Source: a candidate division WOR-3 bacterium
GTDB taxonomy: Bacteria > Hydrothermota > 32-111
Assembly (NCBI GenBank): GCA_039804105.1
Contig: JBDRZU010000001.1
Coordinates: forward strand, 384,001-448,000
Direction: 5' to 3'
Length of the DNA stretch: 64,000 bases
Each line of letters begins with the position of its first letter. Position 1 is the first letter of the stretch. Made by a program: the position numbers. Below are positions 15,901 through 30,900 of the stretch, in pieces.

Positions 15901-18900
15901 GTAAAATAATAATCTTTGATATAAATCTTTATAGTATCCTTAAAAGAAATATCGTCGATGTTAATCGTTGTTGTATTTGAAGTCGTATCGAAAGTTATTT
16001 TTGTTGAATCAAAAGAAATTAAAGATGAATCACAAACAACTTTTATTGAATCTGTAAGAACCTTTTTGTTTAAAACAACTTTAAGATATTTTATCGTTCC
16101 ATAAACAGTATCAACATTAGGGATAAGATCCACTCTTATATCGTTATAAGAAAAATCGTTAAAAAATTTCGGATTAACACTTAAAACTCCACTTCCATCA
16201 AGTGTTTTTAAAACATCTTCGTTTCCATAAGGTCTCAATTCAAATTTACCGTTGTATTCATCCATACATCCTCTAACAAAAATGAAAGTATCGTTTAGAG
16301 ATTCAACTGTTACAGGATAGTTAAGATCCTCGTATACAGTTAAAGGCCCTGTGCCATCATCGATTTGCCATTCTCTCGCTGTTACTATCTGACTCACATA
16401 ACAGCCCTCTAACTGTACAAACATCCCCTCCCATTTTTCTTTTCCTGCCTCACCTGTTTTGAGTTTCACCGGGCCTGGGATCGTCCGTCCTTTTGCAAGT
16501 ACAGTTAGAACTGTTGGATTAGAAATCTCTGTTTTTCCATTGTATTCAACAACCTGTCCTGTAACACTTATTGAATCTCCAACTTCAACAGGAGCTGGAG
16601 GATTATACACAAGAATTCCATGCCACGGTAAAGTATCATCCTGTATATACACATTAACTCCAAAAACTCTTGTAACTATTCCTGAAACCGTAACAATTTG
16701 TCCAGCATAGGGAGAAGCACCAGAAATGTTTTCAGTATATTGAACATCATAGATCGTTAACGAAAAAGAGACGATAACAAGTAAAACGGTTGAAAAAAAT
16801 AAAAATAGATATTTCATCTTACCTCCTGAGAATCCCTTTCCTTTTAGATGAAGGGAGAATATTTAATTTTTCTCTATATTTCGCGACAGTTCTTCGTGCG
16901 ATTTTTATCGAATGTTTTTCCTCAAGAATTTTTACAAGTTCTATATCAGAATAAGGATTGTTTGGATCCTCATTCTCTATCTCTTCTTTTATGATATTCA
17001 TAATTTTTTTGTTTGAAACCTCAAAACCTGTTGTGTTTTTAACACCCTTAGAAAAGAAAAATTTTAAAGGAAATATACCAGCAGGTGTTTCCATATATTT
17101 ATTTTCTATTGCTCTTGAAACTGTTGCTTCATGAATTCCTATATAACTTGAGATATCGTTCAAAGTAAGCGGTTTTAAAGAGGAAATTCCGTTGAAGAAA
17201 AAATCTTTTTGAATCTGAACGATCCTTTCTGATATTTTTAAAAGAGTATTATTTCTTCTGTATATACCTTCAAGTAAAAACAACGCTGCATTGAACTTGT
17301 TTTTCAAAAATTTTTTTTCTTCCTGTGAAAGATTTTCGTTATTTTTGTACATTTCAAAATAACTTTTACTCAGATGAACTTCAGGGAAAGATTGTAGATT
17401 TAAAGAGACATATAGTTCTTCACCTCTCTGTTCCACTATAATATCCGGAATAATGTAATCTGAACTTTTTCCCCAACTTCCATTCGCCGGTTTGGGATTC
17501 AAAGTTCTGATCGATTCAAGAACTTTTTCAAGTTTGTTTCTTGTGATTTTTAATTTGTTTTCAATAATATATAATTTGTTTGTTAAAAACTCTTCATAAA
17601 AATCTTTTATAATCCTATATTCCAATGAATCCATTTTGTTTTGATTTTCAAGTTGAGTTAGAAGAACTTCCTGAACACTTCTACTACCGATACCTACTGG
17701 ATCAAAAAATTTATATTTTGAATGGACATATTCAACTTTTTCAATTGGAATGTTTAAATTTTCTGCGATCTGGGACAAAGATACTTCCAAAAGCCCATCA
17801 TCCGAAAGTGAAAAGGTTATCTCTTCAGCAATTTTTATTTCATCTGGATCATCAAAAAAAATATGTGATTGTGTCAAAAGGTAATCCTGCAAACTTTCAG
17901 GTTCTTCAACATTTGTTAATGGATCAAACTCTTCTCTTTCTCTATCATATCTTTCAGAAGGTAAAGATGCTCTTTTCCAATCATCATGAAAAAAATATTC
18001 ATAGTCAATTTCATCCTTCAAAGGTAGTTCAGGTTCAACCTCCTCATATGTAACATCTTCTTCTTCAAGAACATCATCGGCCAAAAATGGATTCTGTTCA
18101 ATCTCGTTCGTTATAACCTGTTGCAACTCGAGAAGAGGAAGTTGTAAAATTTTTACAAGAGTCAACAACTGTGGTGTTAATTTTATTTCCTGTCTTAAAG
18201 AGGTCTCAAGTTTCTGTTTCATAATCTGAATTTTTCTCCAAGATAGAGTTCTCTTGCCTTCTCATCGTTAATTAACTGGTGAGTATCCCCGGATAAGAGA
18301 ATCTTTCCTTCATATATTATATGTGCTACATCTACGATTTCAAGTGTTTCTCTTACATTATGATCGGTTATTAAAATTCCGATACCTTCTTTTGCAAGAT
18401 CAGTTACCATATTTTGTATTTCTTCTTTAACCTTTGGATCTATCCCTGTAAAAGGTTCATCAAGAAGTAAGAATTTTGGATTTGAAGTCAAAGCCCTTGC
18501 GATTTCGACCCTCCTTCTTTCTCCACCCGAAAGTTTGTAAGCAGGGAGATTTTTCAAATGTGATACTTTAAATTTTTCAAGGAGTTCATCAGCCCTTTTC
18601 TCATTTTTTTTTCTATCTGGAAACAACATTTCAAGTATAGCCAAAAGATTTTCTTTTACAGTTAGTTGCCTAAAAATTGAACTCTCCTGTGGAAGATATC
18701 CTATTCCCAGCCTTGCTCTTTTATACATTGGAAGATCTGTTATATCCTTTTCATCAAGAAAAATTTTCCCTGATGATACAGGAACAACTCCAACCATCAT
18801 ATAAAAAGTTGTTGTTTTACCAGCTCCATTTGGACCGAGAAGTCCAATAATTTTACCATTTTCAACTTCAAGAGACAGTTGATCCACAACTTTCCTTTTT

Positions 18901-27900: not shown

Positions 27901-30900
27901 CCTTACCAACAACTATCAATCGAACATCAGATATTTCTTCAATAATATAATCCATCGCTTTATAAAGAAATTTTATACCTTTTCTTGGATCCTGTCTTCC
28001 AACGAAAAGTATGTTTATCCTTCCATCAATATAGTTTTCAAGTTTTGGATTTGATGGTGAAAATCTTTTGAGGTCAACTCCATTTGGAATAATCGTGTAT
28101 TCTCCCGGGAAATATTTATAAACCGATCTTTTTGCTTCCTCGGAAACTGCAATAACTCCATCCAATCTTTCAAAAAATTTTTTTAGAGGGGATCTCAACG
28201 CTTCATAACCAATAGATCTATCAAAAGCAGCATGGAATGTTATTATGTTTGTTGAATTAGAAAAAAACAATGTTATCAAAGGAAGTGTAGGTGCCAACGC
28301 ACCGTGTATGTGAATTACATCATACTTCTCTCTCTCAAGAAGATTTTTAATATCGAATATCATTTTGATTCCAACTGACACCTGTGCAAATGATTTATTG
28401 GCGGGTATTGAAATCGAGTATCCAACTCTTTTAATATCGCTACCTTCATTTTTTATCGACTTCAAAATCGGATTTCCTGTTAAAATATGAACTGTATGCC
28501 CTTTTCTCTTCATCTCTATATACAGATGATGGATATGTTCTGAAATGCCACCAGGCAAAGGATAATACATATCTGAGACCATCAAAATTTTTAATTTTTT
28601 TCTTTCAGCCATATTACTCCCACCTCATTGAAAAAGCAAACCATTCTTCAGGTTTTCTTTTGATCACATCGACTAAAACTTTTAAACCATTTTCAGCATA
28701 CTTTTTCAGATTCTCATCTTTTTCAACTTCTATTATTAAAGCAATATATCTATACTTTTTATTTTTTCTGTAAAAAAAAGTTCCAAACATTATATCCCTT
28801 GAAAATTTTTTACCAAAATAAAAGGGACCTTTGGGAATAAAAACTTTTGAATTTCCAAAATCACAAAGTGTTCCTGTCTTTGTTATATCTCTATCGAACA
28901 GAAGTACCGGGATATATCCCATCTGCAAATGTTCTTCAAGTTTTAATATTGTTTTTGGATCTTCAAGTGGGAATATTTTCATACCAGTTAAATTTCTAAA
29001 TCTCAACAGAGCCCTGTATTTTGCTTCACCAACTCCTTTAAATTCAGCAACTGATACACTATTTTTAACAAGGTAACCAAAAATTATACCCGCCAACTCC
29101 CAATTCCCATAATGTGCCGTTATCAGAATGTATTTGTGATTCTTAATTCTTTCAAGATCCACATTACTCAAATCGGTTATTTTTAAAATGTAATCCTGTT
29201 TCAAATAATAAGATTTTAATAGATCAAAATGGTTTCTTACCATGTTTACAAAAATCTCTTTCAAATTGAAATCAAATATCCCTATCCTGTTGAGATTTTT
29301 TTTGATACTTTCAACTCTCCAGTTGTTTGAAAAATATATAAGATTTCCTATGACATAAGAAAAAAAATCTATAACTTCATACGGAACAAAATACAAAAAT
29401 ACACTCATAATCCTGAAATAGTAGTAAGAGATCATTTTCCTGTATGGCCAAATCCGCCATCCCCTCTTTTTGTGTTGTTAACCTTATCTTCAATAAAATT
29501 TGCTTTTTCTACTTTTGATAAAACCATCTGCGCTACTCTCTCTCCTTTTTTTATACAAAATCTTTCTCTGTTAAGGTTGAACATTATGATTTTTATTTCA
29601 CCTCTATAATCTGAATCGATCGTTCCAGGAGTGTTTAAAATCAAGATCTTATTTTTTAAAGAGAATCCACTTCTTGGTCTTATCTGTAACTCATAGCCAG
29701 AAGGTATTTCTACTTTTATTCCTGTTGGGACTAACGAAACATCGAAAGGTTCTATACAAACATCCTCAGATGCAAATATATCTGCACCCGAAGAACCATC
29801 TGTCATATATTTTGGTAAAAAACCATTTTCTGTGACTTCAATTTTTATATCTATCATATCTTAAAATTTTTTTTATTTCCAACTATCGAAATATTCAATT
29901 TGTCGAACTTAAAATACTTTTTTGCAATTTCTTTAATATCTTCTGAACATACATTTTTGAATTTTTTTATAACCGAATTTACACTCTCGATTCTTTTTTT
30001 GTATAAAAAAGATTTTGCATTGAATCCCATCCTTCCAGAAAGAGAATCATAACTCATCACAACATTCGCAAGAATCTGGTTTTTTACTTTTTCCATCTCA
30101 TCTTTTTCAACCCCATAGCGTATGATGTTGGACATCTCATTTTCAATAATTCCCATAGTTTTCCTATAATTATCTGGAGAACAGACAAAATATATTCCAC
30201 TCATTCCAGATTCTTTGAAAATATCAACAAAAGAATAAACAGTATATACAAGTCCTTTTTCCTCTCTCAATTTTTTGAACAATCTTGATGACATTCCAAT
30301 ACCTAATATAGCAGAGAGTATCGTCAAAGGGAATCTCTCATCAGAATAATAGTTTTGAGTTTTGAAACCTAATGCAACATGAAATTGCTGTAAAGAATTT
30401 TTATAAACATAGATTTTTTGAGAAAAATTATCTTTGATTTTTATGTTATCATTTTTAACAGATTCACCATTCCTAAAATATTTTTTGTCGATTGATTCTT
30501 TGATATTTTTCGTAGTCAAAGGTCCAACATATGAATAGAAAGAGTTATCATTTACATAATTTTTTTCTATAAAGTTTAAAACATCGTTTCTCGTGATCGA
30601 TTTTATTATCTTCTCACTTCCAAGTATTGTCTTTTCAAAAGGAGAACCTTTAAAAACGATCCTGTTTAAATTTTCAAACACAAGATCTTCAGGATCATCT
30701 TCAGCTGATCTAATTTCTTCTATAACAACATTTTTTTCTTTTTCAAGTTCATCTTCAGTGATCAGAGGTTCAAAAAGCATCTCCTGAAAAATTGGAAGGA
30801 TCCTTTTAAAATTATCAGGTAAACATTTAAAGTAAAATGAGGTATGATCCCTTGCTGTGTAAGCATTTATTGTTCCACCATAATGTTCTATCAATCTTGA

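Follow-up and report, generated by a model that had tools for sequence, protein, structure and literature searches.

Retention of the Lpt export machine after loss of lipid A synthesis in a class of candidate division WOR-3 bacteria, with an acylated glycolipid as a possible cargo

An uncultured two-membraned bacterium of candidate division WOR-3 has lost the genes for LPS synthesis and kept the machine for LPS export. Since lipid A has been lost and the Lpt bridge has been kept working, Lpt must export an amphiphile other than LPS. Gene content suggests as its cargo an acylated glycolipid made by an operon of a PatA-like acyltransferase (AT2) and a PimA-like glycosyltransferase (GT4) together with a second acyltransferase (AT1), a proposal to which we give somewhat less than an even chance. 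The window, the whole 64,000-nucleotide stretch of DNA that was analysed, contains all of its genes named in the first-pass annotation, all on the minus strand.

Lipid A synthesis has been lost in the class

LpxC (PF03331) is found in none of the 18 genomes of the class and in 231 of the 253 genomes of the phylum outside it, as claimed earlier; completeness reaches 90% or more in 13 of the 18, none of which has the gene. LpxB, LpxK and the N-terminal domain of WaaA were each undetected in the five class genomes searched (G000, G001, G005, G010, G015). The C-terminal domain of LpxA was found in 0/13 genomes of the bacterium's own family and in 5/5 of the sister family, which keeps an LpxA-like gene as had been stated. 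The absence of LpxD had been judged from tables alone. PF04613 detected no LpxD in the 18 class genomes and also missed it in three of three LpxC-positive genomes of the phylum, and is therefore not a valid test here; TIGR01853, above its cut-off in all five LpxC-positive in-phylum controls, gave 0/18 in the class and so confirms the absence. When a relative's LpxA, LpxC::FabZ and LpxD were compared by tblastn with the whole genome, the FabZ half was the sole match. Profile searches and tblastn thus agree with the first-pass annotation that the genome is without LpxA, LpxC, LpxD, LpxB, LpxK and WaaA.

The ancestral layout, lpxD-lpxC::fabZ-lpxA, is present in the LpxC-positive genomes G020 and G084. 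The sister family has bamA-skp-fabZ-lpxA-cysS, where the LpxA-like gene is intact and has kept its ancestral position, and the genome studied here has bamA-skp-fabZ-cysS, with 3 nt between fabZ and cysS. This stepwise trimming of the ancestral locus to skp-fabZ-cysS is a deletion scar. The loss in the class is old and almost certainly real. LpxC and LpxD are also missing from a second lineage (G160, G162). That the loss only seems real because assemblies are incomplete, or that the lpt genes are decaying relics, might be argued from the rating of this genome as 85% complete. Against this, the genome is assembled in just two contigs, the better-completed class genomes agree on LpxC, the deletion at the ancestral locus is clean, and none of the Lpt genes is truncated, their dN/dS being 0.04–0.20; the completeness, deletion and dN/dS data already refute such a reading, which we consider extremely improbable, and the earlier reservation that the Lpt genes might be relics falls with it.

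Lpt genes remain intact under purifying selection

The LptF_LptG family and LptD_2 are each found in 16 of the 18 class genomes. In the window, lptB (18219..18938, minus strand) encodes the transporter ATPase (TIGR04406, 351 bits, cut-off 240) and is 54–61% identical to orthologues of LpxC-positive relatives. Between lptB and the LptC-like gene lies, as in G205, a gene for a 303-aa LptA-like periplasmic protein (18922..19833, minus), which matches LptD_N at 23.2 bits (cut-off 20.4), LptA (TIGR03002) at 29 bits and LptC at 19–25 bits, the latter two under cut-off. It has an N-terminal hydrophobic helix and is all-beta thereafter; its AF2 model is likewise all-beta, at low confidence (pLDDT 62.6). 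The 205-aa LptC-like membrane-anchored protein (19817..20434, minus) matches OstA_2 at 26.2 bits (cut-off 21.2) and LptC (TIGR04409) at 29.3 bits, under the cut-off of 38, and has one TM-like helix at residues 36–58 of the longest ORF. The lptCAB-rpoN string ends with rpoN, encoding sigma-54 (16819..18222, minus; Sigma54_DBD/CBD/AID, 185/149/42 bits), which overlaps lptB by 4 nt. The Lpt side of the first-pass annotation, namely LptB, LptF/LptG, LptD_2 and weak LptA-like and LptC-like matches, therefore stands.

Values of dN/dS, calculated between this genome and G004 at dS 0.4–0.65, are 0.044 for LptB, 0.067 and 0.069 for LptF and LptG, 0.126 for the LptA-like and 0.20 for the LptC-like protein. 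Such ratios indicate purifying selection on intact genes, and judged by that selection the Lpt genes are very probably functional. LptE was detected in 0/13 own-family genomes and in four of five sister-family genomes, these too being without LpxC and LpxD. Several LpxC-positive families likewise largely lack a detectable LptE (found in 1/7 genomes of f13, 0/4 of f16 and 5/16 of f26), so that its absence is not diagnostic.

An acyltransferase in the lpt operon

AT1 (20289..21107, minus) belongs to the lipid-A-late-acyltransferase family (Lip_A_acyltrans, 72 bits) and carries the motif HYGNWE (HX4E); its best NCBIfam match, the lauroyl acyltransferase PRK08419, scores 64 bits, far below the cut-off of 248. 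AT1 is predicted to be co-transcribed with lptC, lptA and lptB. Directly upstream in the same operon lies a gene for a DUF362 and 4Fe-4S protein (21076..22185, minus; DUF362 156 bits, plus Fer4 domains), which also adjoins AT1 in G003, G005 and G010, where the order DUF362-AT1-lptC-lptA-lptB is kept. AT1 lies within the lptCAB operon in all four genera of family f1 examined (G000, G003, G005, G010), and the LpxC-positive G205 has an acyltransferase in the matching slot. With a dN/dS of 0.127 against G004, AT1 is under purifying selection despite the absence of lipid A. No Lip_A_acyltrans gene occurs in G015, a genome of the sister family that is 97% complete.

A PimA-like glycosyltransferase and its operon

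The second Lip_A_acyltrans gene claimed for the window, AT2 (28614..29435, minus; 53 bits), stands beside the gene for GT4 (27440..28612, minus). GT4 matches the PimA structures 2GEJ/4N9W over its full length (E 3.5e-48, 168 bits), compared with 87 bits for the next PDB structure, and by sequence is a specific PimA relative among solved structures. It is as constrained as PNPase (dN/dS 0.020 and 0.018, against G004). The donor-side and catalytic residues are retained, including EX7E, H118, R196 and K202. Five of the ten residues reported critical for PimA are lost (Y9, Q18, Y62, R68 and E199), mostly in the N-terminal, acceptor domain, as are D253 and K256 on the guanine side. No clear mannose-1-phosphate guanylyltransferase for GDP-mannose synthesis was found in the genome; the best candidate, at 93 bits, falls short of the 440-bit cut-off. 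These substitutions, the deacetylase encoded next door (below) and the lack of a clear GDP-mannose synthase make strict PimA identity doubtful.

The only PDB matches of AT2 are PatA structures (E 5e-6), and its best NCBIfam match is the PIM acyltransferase PRK07920 (69 bits, cut-off 209). Equivalents of His126, Trp130 and Arg164 are kept, and Glu200 is replaced by Asp, so that the catalytic His and an acidic partner are preserved. Syntenic orthologues in LpxC-positive genomes score 116–135 bits with PRK07920, and the PIM-acyltransferase model is the best match for all four copies linked there to a PimA-like gene. The pairing of a PimA-like mannosyltransferase with a lipid-A-type acyltransferase had been noted before, and the closest solved structures, PimA and PatA, agree with it. 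The family scores of AT1, AT2 and the LptA-like and LptC-like proteins all lie far under curated equivalog cut-offs.

The genes AT2-GT4-CE4-UbiA-TPR-GT overlap or abut, as one operon. The CE4 (NodB-type) deacetylase (26607..27449, minus; Polysacc_deac_1, 90 bits) is anchored in the membrane by an N-terminal TM helix, after which comes a lysine-rich stretch, and its gene adjoins or lies close to that of the PimA-like enzyme in G149, G224 and G108; its conservation next to GT4 suggests an N-acetylated sugar. The UbiA-family prenyltransferase (25678..26610, minus; UbiA 86 bits; best NCBIfam match PRK12875, 73 bits) has orthologues of 36–44% identity that are located elsewhere in four of five LpxC-positive genomes. 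Next come an exported TPR protein (24713..25681, minus; TPR families), hydrophobic at residues 1–24, and, overlapping its gene, a weak GT-B glycosyltransferase (23587..24720, minus; Glycos_transf_1 at 22 bits, below cut-off; dN/dS 0.166 against G004; no match in the PDB), the last gene of the operon. Upstream of AT2, a dUTPase gene (29432..29857, minus; 108 bits) serves as a syntenic marker, adjoining AT2 and the PimA-like gene in G149, G131, G224 and G108.

Phosphatidylinositol-phosphate synthesis is encoded, as stated previously, by a PIP-synthase-type gene overlapping Ino1 in an operon away from the glycolipid genes. No other CDP-alcohol phosphatidyltransferase was found in the genome, and Ino1 is present in 18/18 class genomes. 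Of the acylated phosphatidylinositol mannosides proposed earlier, the resemblance to PimA and PatA and the phosphatidylinositol route stand, whereas the lost PimA-critical residues and the want of a clear GDP-mannose synthase weigh against the mannoside.

The glycolipid genes predate the loss of LPS

The first-pass annotation regarded the PimA/PatA-type genes as an LPS substitute, a reading that their distribution does not support. The PimA-like gene is present in 260 of the 271 genomes of the phylum, its PNPase-M16-dUTPase-acyltransferase neighbourhood is the same in LpxC-positive relatives, and Ino1 occurs in all five LpxC-positive genomes tested. As these genes coexist with LpxC, they neither arose nor changed with the loss of LPS, to which the distribution of the PimA-like gene, AT2 and Ino1 shows no tie. 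Throughout the phylum they are ancestral housekeeping genes, coexisting with LPS in most lineages; once LPS had gone, their product at most remained as the principal lipid of the outer leaflet. G149 and G131, LpxC-positive genomes of one contig each, have a single Lip_A_acyltrans gene, the one beside the PimA-like gene, and it might have a lipid A role there.

Possible cargoes of the Lpt machine

The proposed glycolipid would draw on two gene sets, the AT2-GT4-CE4-UbiA-TPR-GT operon and the LpxL-like AT1 co-transcribed with lptC-lptA-lptB. On the cytoplasmic side, GT4 would glycosylate a membrane lipid, possibly phosphatidylinositol from the PIPS-Ino1 operon, with mannose or, given the CE4 deacetylase, an N-acetylhexosamine, and AT2, AT1 or both would supply further acyl chains. 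LptB2FG would extract the multi-acylated product once it had been flipped, and the jellyroll proteins would hand it on to LptD_2, the bridge comprising LptB, LptF, LptG, the LptC-like and LptA-like proteins and the LptD_2 barrel. The operon probably makes an acylated glycolipid; phosphatidylinositol is a plausible acceptor, though we lean slightly against it, and that Lpt carries this product seems, taken as a separate step, rather unlikely.

Lpt without LPS is not unique to this class, and the claim of a new cargo for Lpt gives way to published precedents. Lipoproteins have been proposed as the cargo in Borrelia burgdorferi; Borrelia is reported to be without LptE (bioRxiv 10.1101/2022.12.21.521298). 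Export of surface lipoproteins here, with the PimA/PatA-type glycolipid an unrelated membrane lipid, would mean that LptB2FG extracts lipoproteins matured by LspA and that LptD_2 flips them to the surface. A class-only overlap hints at such a cargo: in this genome ileS is followed by dksA, lspA and lptD_2, and lptD_2 overlaps the end of lspA by 20 nt. The adjacency of dksA/lspA to lptD_2 is seen in 5/5 class genomes examined (G000, G001, G013, G014, G015) and in 0/9 outside it (G192, G108, G162, G160, G084, G131, G149, G205, G224). The missing LptE of the own family and about 39 ORFs with a lipobox-like N-terminus (rough regex) point the same way. However, the synteny is one evolutionary event common to kin and carries no statistical weight, the second LpxC/LpxD-less lineage lacks the adjacency, the absence of LptE is not diagnostic, as its occurrence in the sister and LpxC-positive families shows, and the lptCAB operon holds an LpxL-like acyltransferase and no lipoprotein gene. 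We consider lipoprotein export fairly unlikely. The coupling of lptD_2 to lspA, and to no lipid-synthesis gene, counts against a glycolipid cargo.

Known Lpt machines extract multi-acylated amphiphiles, and other systems are credited with the bulk traffic of phospholipids. This speaks against an Lpt-like machine that moves ordinary membrane lipids with no preference for one glycolipid, as does the lack of any link in the window between the lpt genes and phospholipid synthesis. Such a cargo could be phospholipids including phosphatidylinositol, or archaeal-type ether lipids that the genome may make, given a DGGGP-synthase-like UbiA (PRK12884, 218 bits) distinct from the operon UbiA. The LptF_LptG family also matches the control genomes Thermus, Deinococcus and Thermotoga, and one report (PMC10160955) describes Deinococcus-Thermus and Thermotoga as without LPS and proposes an LptF/G-LptA-LptD-like protein for lipid transport to the toga in Thermotoga maritima. 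A lipid cargo is suggested for the Lpt-like permease of Thermotoga; for the class we hold a cargo of ordinary membrane lipids improbable. Still less probable is a lipid-A-like molecule made by non-canonical enzymes, with CE4 in place of LpxC, AT1 and AT2 as acyltransferases (plus LpxA in the sister family) and Lpt carrying the LPS analogue. The deacetylase and both acyltransferases are kept under selection, and the sister family retains LptE along with its LpxA-like gene. Yet LpxC-positive relatives also carry the CE4 gene and AT2, which are therefore not replacements; LpxB, LpxK and WaaA are missing as described, as is LpxA from the own family, and no UDP-sugar acyltransferase candidate was identified.

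Two gene strings carry the lpt and PimA/PatA-like genes

All relevant genes of the window are encoded on the minus strand, closely packed into two strings, with gene families assigned by Pfam and NCBIfam. The first string runs from QueH and a UDG-like gene through a DUF362/4Fe-4S gene (21076–22185), a gene of the lipid A late acyltransferase family, here AT1 (20289–21107; Pfam Lip_A_acyltrans, 72 bits), an LptC-like gene (19817–20434; OstA_2, 26 bits), an LptA-like gene (18922–19833; LptD_N, 23 bits) and LptB (18219–18938; TIGR04406, 351 bits, cut-off 240) to RpoN (16819–18222); adjacent genes share a few bases. 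The assignment of LptB is unambiguous, whereas the LptC-like and LptA-like proteins match weakly and both score under the cut-offs of the LptA/LptC models. The DUF362/4Fe-4S gene is found directly upstream of AT1-lptC-lptA-lptB in G003, G005 and G010 as well as in this genome. Just downstream of rpoN, positions 14844–16817 (minus strand) encode a 657-residue protein with an OB-fold/DUF5689-like region and a C-terminal FlgD_ig-type domain, which may be secreted or located at the surface.

The second string consists of an M16 peptidase, a dUTPase (29432–29857), a second acyltransferase, AT2 (28614–29435; Lip_A_acyltrans, 53 bits), a GT4 glycosyltransferase (27440–28612), a NodB-type CE4 deacetylase (26607–27449), UbiA (25678–26610), a TPR protein (24713–25681) and a weakly matching glycosyltransferase (23587–24720), the genes abutting or overlapping. 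The acyltransferase-then-GT4 order is also that of mycobacterial patA-pimA. An assignment of the UbiA of this cluster as an archaeal-type DGGGP synthase was rejected, its score being 34 bits against 218 for another UbiA gene of the genome. The latter, on contig 2 (107352–108197; L044:1352–2197), matches the GGGP geranylgeranyltransferase (DGGGP synthase) models PRK12884 and PRK12882 with 218 and 182 bits. The genome comprises 1,811,800 bases in 2 contigs and is rated 85% complete.

The lipid A pathway was lost in steps

The first-pass annotation held that the lipid A pathway was lost and the Lpt machine kept. Both points are confirmed: a scar at the ancestral locus and controls from within the phylum strengthen the former, and evidence of selection the latter. 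LpxC (PF03331) is detected in none of the 18 genomes of class 32-111 (13 of them with a completeness of 90% or more), as against 231 of the 253 genomes of the phylum outside the class. None of the 13 own-family genomes has the LpxA C-terminal domain, which is present in all five of the sister family. LpxB, the WaaA N-terminal domain and LpxK were each found in 0 of 5 class genomes (G000, the genome of the window, and G001, G005, G010 and G015).

The absence of LpxD had previously been judged from annotation tables, and it holds in a direct search: TIGR01853 exceeds its cut-off in none of the 18 class genomes versus 5 of 5 LpxC-positive controls from within the phylum (G084, G149, G131, G163, G164). 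This model replaced PF04613, which gave 0/18 in the class yet also 0/3 in LpxC-positive members of family f28, the LpxD of which has no N-terminal domain and is therefore missed. When the LpxA, LpxC::FabZ and LpxD proteins of G084 were searched by tblastn against the whole own genome, only the FabZ half and a generic hexapeptide protein were returned. No Kdo, LpxB or LpxK genes usable as queries were found in the flanks examined of the lpx and lpt loci of a relative.

The deletion scar, which is the strongest evidence for the loss, is located outside the window (contig 1, 89120–94146; compared loci L034, L035, L003, L002 and L030). The LpxC-positive G020 and G084 have the order lpxD-lpxC::fabZ-lpxA, with a fusion protein of 421 residues. 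The sister family (G015, G013, G017) has bamA-skp-fabZ-lpxA-cysS with a FabZ of 144 residues, and the own genome has clpB-bamA-skp-fabZ-cysS, in which 3 nt separate fabZ from cysS. The LpxC::FabZ fusion has been trimmed to a stand-alone FabZ in the class, and the decay of the locus is gene loss in steps and not an assembly gap. The retention of BamA and Skp shows that the envelope is still diderm; the BamA orthologue of G015 has five POTRA domains followed by Omp85. The cultured WOR-3 isolate sy37 is described as a diderm with 'some genes for lipopolysaccharide biosynthesis' (PMC12285271), and a term search of that paper gave no passage on polar lipids, inositol or glycolipids and no lipid chemistry.

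In the LpxC-positive G084, lpxD-lpxC::fabZ-lpxA is followed by a UDP-GlcNAc 3-dehydrogenase-like gene (L030:7693–8685; 204 bits, cut-off 450), a hint that LPS-bearing members may make lipid A of the diamino-sugar (GlcN3N) type.

A second lineage of the phylum, within family f28, is also devoid of LpxC (absent from 7 of 10 genomes: G157–G162 and G166, with no coordinates in the window). LpxD over the TIGR01853 cut-off was found in 0 of 3 of these genomes tested (G157, G160, G162) versus both of the genomes tested from the LpxC-positive genus of f28, and the lineage seems to represent an independent loss of lipid A.

The Lpt exporter is retained under purifying selection

LptF_LptG genes occur as two adjacent genes in 16 of the 18 class genomes (13/13 of high quality). 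In the own genome the pair scores 239 and 199 bits with PF03739 (cut-off 27.9), and NCBIfam separates it into LptF (173 bits) and LptG (170 bits), which stay below the equivalog cut-offs of 230 and 240. The barrel family LptD_2 is likewise found in 16/18 class genomes; the own protein (675 residues) matches PF19838 with 84 bits (cut-off 22.5), and its residues 22–330 align to the E. coli-type LptD model PRK03761 with 70 bits.

Comparison with the congener G004, in which synonymous sites are unsaturated (dS 0.4–0.65), gave dN/dS values of 0.044 (LptB), 0.067 and 0.069 (LptF/G), 0.126 (LptA-like protein), 0.20 (LptC-like protein) and 0.127 (AT1), with PNPase at 0.018 for reference; LptD_2 gave 0.087 against G001, where dS is saturated. 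LptB is as conserved as PNPase towards LpxC-positive relatives (54–61% and 52–54% identity, respectively). By these sequence measures the lpt genes are working genes and not relics.

The LptA-like protein evolves fast: a search of 5.8 billion proteins gave only 8 homologues at E ≤ 1e-5. Its AlphaFold model, built from a 9-sequence alignment, is all-beta and of low confidence (mean pLDDT 62.6), and a Foldseek search of the PDB with this low-confidence model returned nothing with a TM above 0.25, an LptDE entry standing at rank 44. The assignment as LptA-like is accordingly a putative one, drawn from weak profile matches and from position. The LpxC-positive G205 shows the same layout: an acyltransferase, LptC (PF06835, 71 bits), a 323-residue OstA-like protein, LptB and RpoN. 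In G010 the LptA-like gene is present as two ORFs of 130 and 148 residues (L054:3542–4364), which could reflect a frameshift, an assembly error or a true split.

LptE (PF04390) was detected in none of the 13 own-family genomes, which is weak evidence for its absence, the family being undetectable in many LpxC-positive genomes too. Four of 5 sister-family genomes have it, as do 193 of 271 genomes of the phylum. A first sample (0/3 LPS-less versus 2/2 LPS-positive genomes) had suggested LptE loss as a marker of changed cargo, a pattern that broke down phylum-wide. LptE loss does not cleanly track the loss of lipid A, since the gene is found in 4/5 of the sister family and 6/7 of the LpxC-less f28 genomes and is undetected in several LpxC-positive families. 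LptD_2 is kept in both of the LpxC-less f28 genomes tested for it.

The system shares its gene families and the lptC-lptA-lptB-rpoN layout with the LptB2FGC-LptA-LptDE machine of E. coli, and its LptB exceeds the equivalog cut-off. It differs from that machine in lacking a lipid A or LPS pathway and, in the own family, any detectable LptE, and in having highly divergent LptA- and LptC-like proteins and a barrel of the Bacteroidota-type LptD_2 family.

AT1 and AT2 belong to the lipid A acyltransferase/PatA superfamily

Lip_A_acyltrans genes occur in 17 of the 18 class genomes, mostly as two copies in the own family and as one or none in the sister family; G010 has just one copy over threshold. 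Both AT1 and AT2 carry an HYGNWE (HX4E) motif. AT1 is placed among the Lip_A_acyltrans clusters of the Atlas, and its best NCBIfam model, PRK08419, gives 64 bits against a cut-off of 248. With the pathway to Kdo2-lipid IVA absent, AT1 would not be expected to act on that substrate.

The earlier description of AT2 as PatA-like is partly upheld: its only PDB matches are PatA and its best model is PRK07920, although the score (69 bits) is below the cut-off of 209. HYGNWE of AT2 aligns to HSGNWD of PatA. The equivalent of the catalytic His126 is kept and its acidic partner is retained in kind, Glu200 being replaced by Asp, while Trp130 and Arg164 are kept and Phe160 is a leucine (residue roles as described in passages of PMC8519569). 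Syntenic orthologues of AT2 in LpxC-positive genomes score 116–135 bits with PRK07920 versus 78–96 bits with lipid A lauroyl-transferase models, and PRK07920 is the best model for 4/4 PimA-linked and 2/2 unlinked acyltransferase copies in such genomes. In the one-contig, LpxC-positive G149 and G131 the sole Lip_A_acyltrans member is the gene beside the PimA-like gene, and there it may have a role in lipid A.

VexE, the acyltransferase of the Vi-antigen glycolipid anchor, is a member of the same lipid A late acyltransferase/PatA superfamily and is described as acylating a glycolipid other than lipid A (PMC9597891). It is a precedent for AT1 and AT2 being active in a cell without lipid A. VexE is part of a capsule system in LPS-bearing Proteobacteria, and it is likened to AT1 and AT2 by its published description.

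The GT4 enzyme is PimA-like, with losses mostly on the acceptor side

PimA is the closest solved structure to the window GT4 (2GEJ and 4N9W; full length, E 3.5e-48, 168 bits), and the next solved GT4 enzyme scores 87 bits. Many homologues are labelled 'phosphatidylinositol alpha-mannosyltransferase' by JGI, and no PimA model stands among the best 25 of its 39 NCBIfam matches. In one pairwise HMMER alignment spanning the full length of 2GEJ, the EX7E motif, H118, R196 and K202 are kept, and PGG, FH, GR..PRKG and GGESFGIVLLEAMA are conserved. The donor-side and catalytic residues kept are P14, G15, G16, H118, R196, R201, K202, V226, G227, V251, D252, E274, S275, F276, I278 and E282; the guanine/ribose side has lost D253 and K256.

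Ten residues are described as critical for PimA: Y9, Q18, Y62, N63, R68, H118, R196, E199, R201 and E274 (PMC9202250). Five of these (N63, H118, R196, R201 and E274) are kept in GT4. Y9 is replaced by Met, Q18 by Ser, Y62 by Ala and R68 by Gln, four positions that belong to the N-terminal (acceptor) domain; at E199 the alignment has a gap. The enzyme is PimA-like as had been proposed, while strict PimA chemistry is doubtful.

An ORF motif scan combined with NCBIfam yielded three sugar nucleotidyltransferases (GlmU, an RmlA_long-like protein and a CBS-NTP_transferase) and, ambiguously, no clear GDP-mannose synthase; the best of the three scores 93 bits on the mannose-1-P guanylyltransferase model (cut-off 440). 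In CE4 a lysine-rich stretch comes after an N-terminal membrane helix, an arrangement which suggests that the catalytic domain of the enzyme faces the cytoplasm. Three LpxC-positive relatives likewise have a CE4 gene adjoining or close to the PimA-like gene, so an N-acetylhexosamine that is later deacetylated would be as likely a sugar as mannose.

Most genomes of the phylum have 2–3 PimA-like matches. The second PimA-like GT4 of the own genome, directly after thyX on contig 2 (78878–80005; L039:9878–11005), is 41% identical to the window enzyme and equally PimA-like (161 bits to PimA), and has no equivalent of H118.

Phosphatidylinositol synthesis is encoded elsewhere in the genome

The proposal that the cell makes phosphatidylinositol is supported by a PIP-synthase-type gene that overlaps Ino1 on contig 2 (26486–28175; L011:8486–10175). 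The best PDB matches of the PIPS-type protein are PIP synthases. It scores 155 bits with the archaetidylinositol-phosphate synthase model, its best in NCBIfam, and 126 bits with PIPSynth, both under cut-off, and Ino1 scores 542 bits with TIGR03450 (cut-off 638). The PIPS-type gene is the sole CDP-alcohol phosphatidyltransferase detected in the own genome at E ≤ 0.001, with no PgsA or PssA of that family seen at the same threshold. Lipids with an inositol head group may form a major class here.

Inositol lipids are described as rare in bacteria and found largely in Actinobacteria and Treponema, with Bacteroidetes in addition (PMC9246714). Bacteroides, a relative in the FCB group, has an inositol-lipid cluster in which, as here, phosphatidylinositol is made by an Ino1-type enzyme (MIPS) and a PIP synthase (PMC9246714), and the own PIPS matches the Bacteroides-type model NF052561 with 113 bits. 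The two differ further down the pathway: in Bacteroides phosphatidylinositol is reported to lead to inositol sphingolipids, a term search of that paper giving no mention of mannosides, whereas here a PimA/PatA-like pair is encoded.

The reported mycobacterial PimA-PatA system, which makes acylated phosphatidylinositol mannosides (2GEJ, 5F2T; PMC9202250, PMC8519569), shares with the present genes an adjoining acyltransferase-GT4 pair and a PI(P) synthase with Ino1 in the genome. It differs in that here the envelope is of the Gram-negative type, the PI synthase is unlinked to the pair, and CE4, UbiA, TPR and a further glycosyltransferase are in the operon.

The PI and PimA/PatA-like genes predate the loss of lipid A

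The first-pass annotation regarded these genes as the likely substitute for lipid A. Their distribution speaks against this. At E ≤ 1e-40 a PimA-like gene is present in 260 of 271 genomes of the phylum (175/180 of high quality), at 41–52% identity and full length, and in all 10 genomes of family f28; family f7 is without it (0 of 4 genomes). The PNPase/M16/dUTPase neighbourhood surrounds the best PimA-like match in 7 of 7 LpxC-positive loci fetched, and an AT2-type acyltransferase adjoins the gene in four of them (G149, G131, G224, G108). Ino1 was found in all five LpxC-positive genomes tested, four of which have orthologues of the cluster UbiA elsewhere. A related-locus search of genome contigs with the PimA-like protein gave only 4 close relatives.

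Its presence in LpxC-positive genomes makes the PI/PimA-like/PatA-like set ancestral to the phylum, where it normally exists alongside LPS. The set did not arise, move or visibly change with the loss of lipid A; it is phylum-wide housekeeping, and the reading as a substitute that came with the loss falls. These data extend inositol-lipid and PimA/PatA-like genes outside Actinobacteria to a whole candidate phylum, as automatic annotation already hints. Among the papers covered by the literature search, none dealt with the loss of LPS in the phylum or with genes of the PimA/PatA type outside Actinobacteria.

Candidate cargoes of the retained Lpt machine

Class 32-111 is a diderm without LPS that kept Lpt, a kind already described. 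As the Lpt cargo of such diderms, lipoproteins (Borrelia) and lipids (Thermotoga) have been proposed. The phylum provides good comparative material on this question, with a clean stepwise lpx deletion, a second lineage without LpxC and LpxD, many LPS-making relatives and Lpt in all. The window points to two candidate cargoes, one a glycolipid of the PimA/PatA type and the other the lipoproteins that mature through LspA, which is translationally coupled to LptD.

The favoured reading, held at low confidence, is that the cargo would be an acylated glycolipid produced by AT2, GT4 and CE4 together with the lpt-linked AT1. A more specific version, in which the outer leaflet would consist of a multi-acylated glycosyl-inositol-phospholipid made by the PatA-like/PimA-like/CE4 operon and AT1 and carried by Lpt, is unlikely. 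Such a lipid would be AcPIM-like, or of the GlcN-PI type after deacetylation; if real, no glycolipid other than LPS would have been shown as Lpt cargo before it, and an envelope of the Gram-negative type would hold a lipid of the mycobacterial kind. A glycolipid cargo of Lpt has been suggested before, for Treponema, in work cited by bioRxiv 10.1101/2022.12.21.521298.

Surface lipoproteins are nearly as likely a cargo as the acylated glycolipid. Outside the window, in the order ileS-dksA-like-lspA-lptD_2 (contig 1, 1046927–1049510; L013:6927–9510), lptD_2 starts 20 nt inside the end of lspA, which encodes the lipoprotein signal peptidase. The dksA/lspA-lptD_2 adjacency is found in 5 of 5 class genomes (G000, G001, G013, G014, G015) and in 0 of 9 genomes outside the class, in each of which about 1 kb of upstream flank was read. 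The adjacency is, however, a single event common to kin and carries no statistical weight, and it is seen in neither of the two LpxC-less f28 genomes examined. The lspA-lptD_2 link still recalls LPS-less Borrelia, in which an LptB2FGCAD system without LptE is reported to place surface lipoproteins (bioRxiv 10.1101/2022.12.21.521298).

Borrelia burgdorferi, as described in that preprint, resembles the present class in being a diderm without LPS that keeps LptB, F, G, C, A and D (BB0838 being the LptD homologue) with no recognisable LptE, in having an LptA homologue longer than the E. coli protein, and in that another acylated cargo is thought to be carried. The Borrelia cargo was assigned from knock-down experiments, whereas for class 32-111 the candidates are predictions from genes. 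The two belong to different phyla with independent losses. A translational coupling of lptD with lspA, and an LpxL-like acyltransferase at the head of the lptCAB operon, also set the present class apart.

Thermotoga maritima is likewise described as an LPS-less diderm with LptF/G-, LptA- and LptD-like modules, forming a permease proposed to take lipids out of the inner membrane and on to the outer layer, or toga (PMC10160955). Those modules are fused in one protein, whereas here they are separate genes in the canonical arrangement, as lptC-lptA-lptB-rpoN, lptF-lptG and lptD_2. The LptF_LptG family also matches the Thermus, Deinococcus and Thermotoga control genomes.
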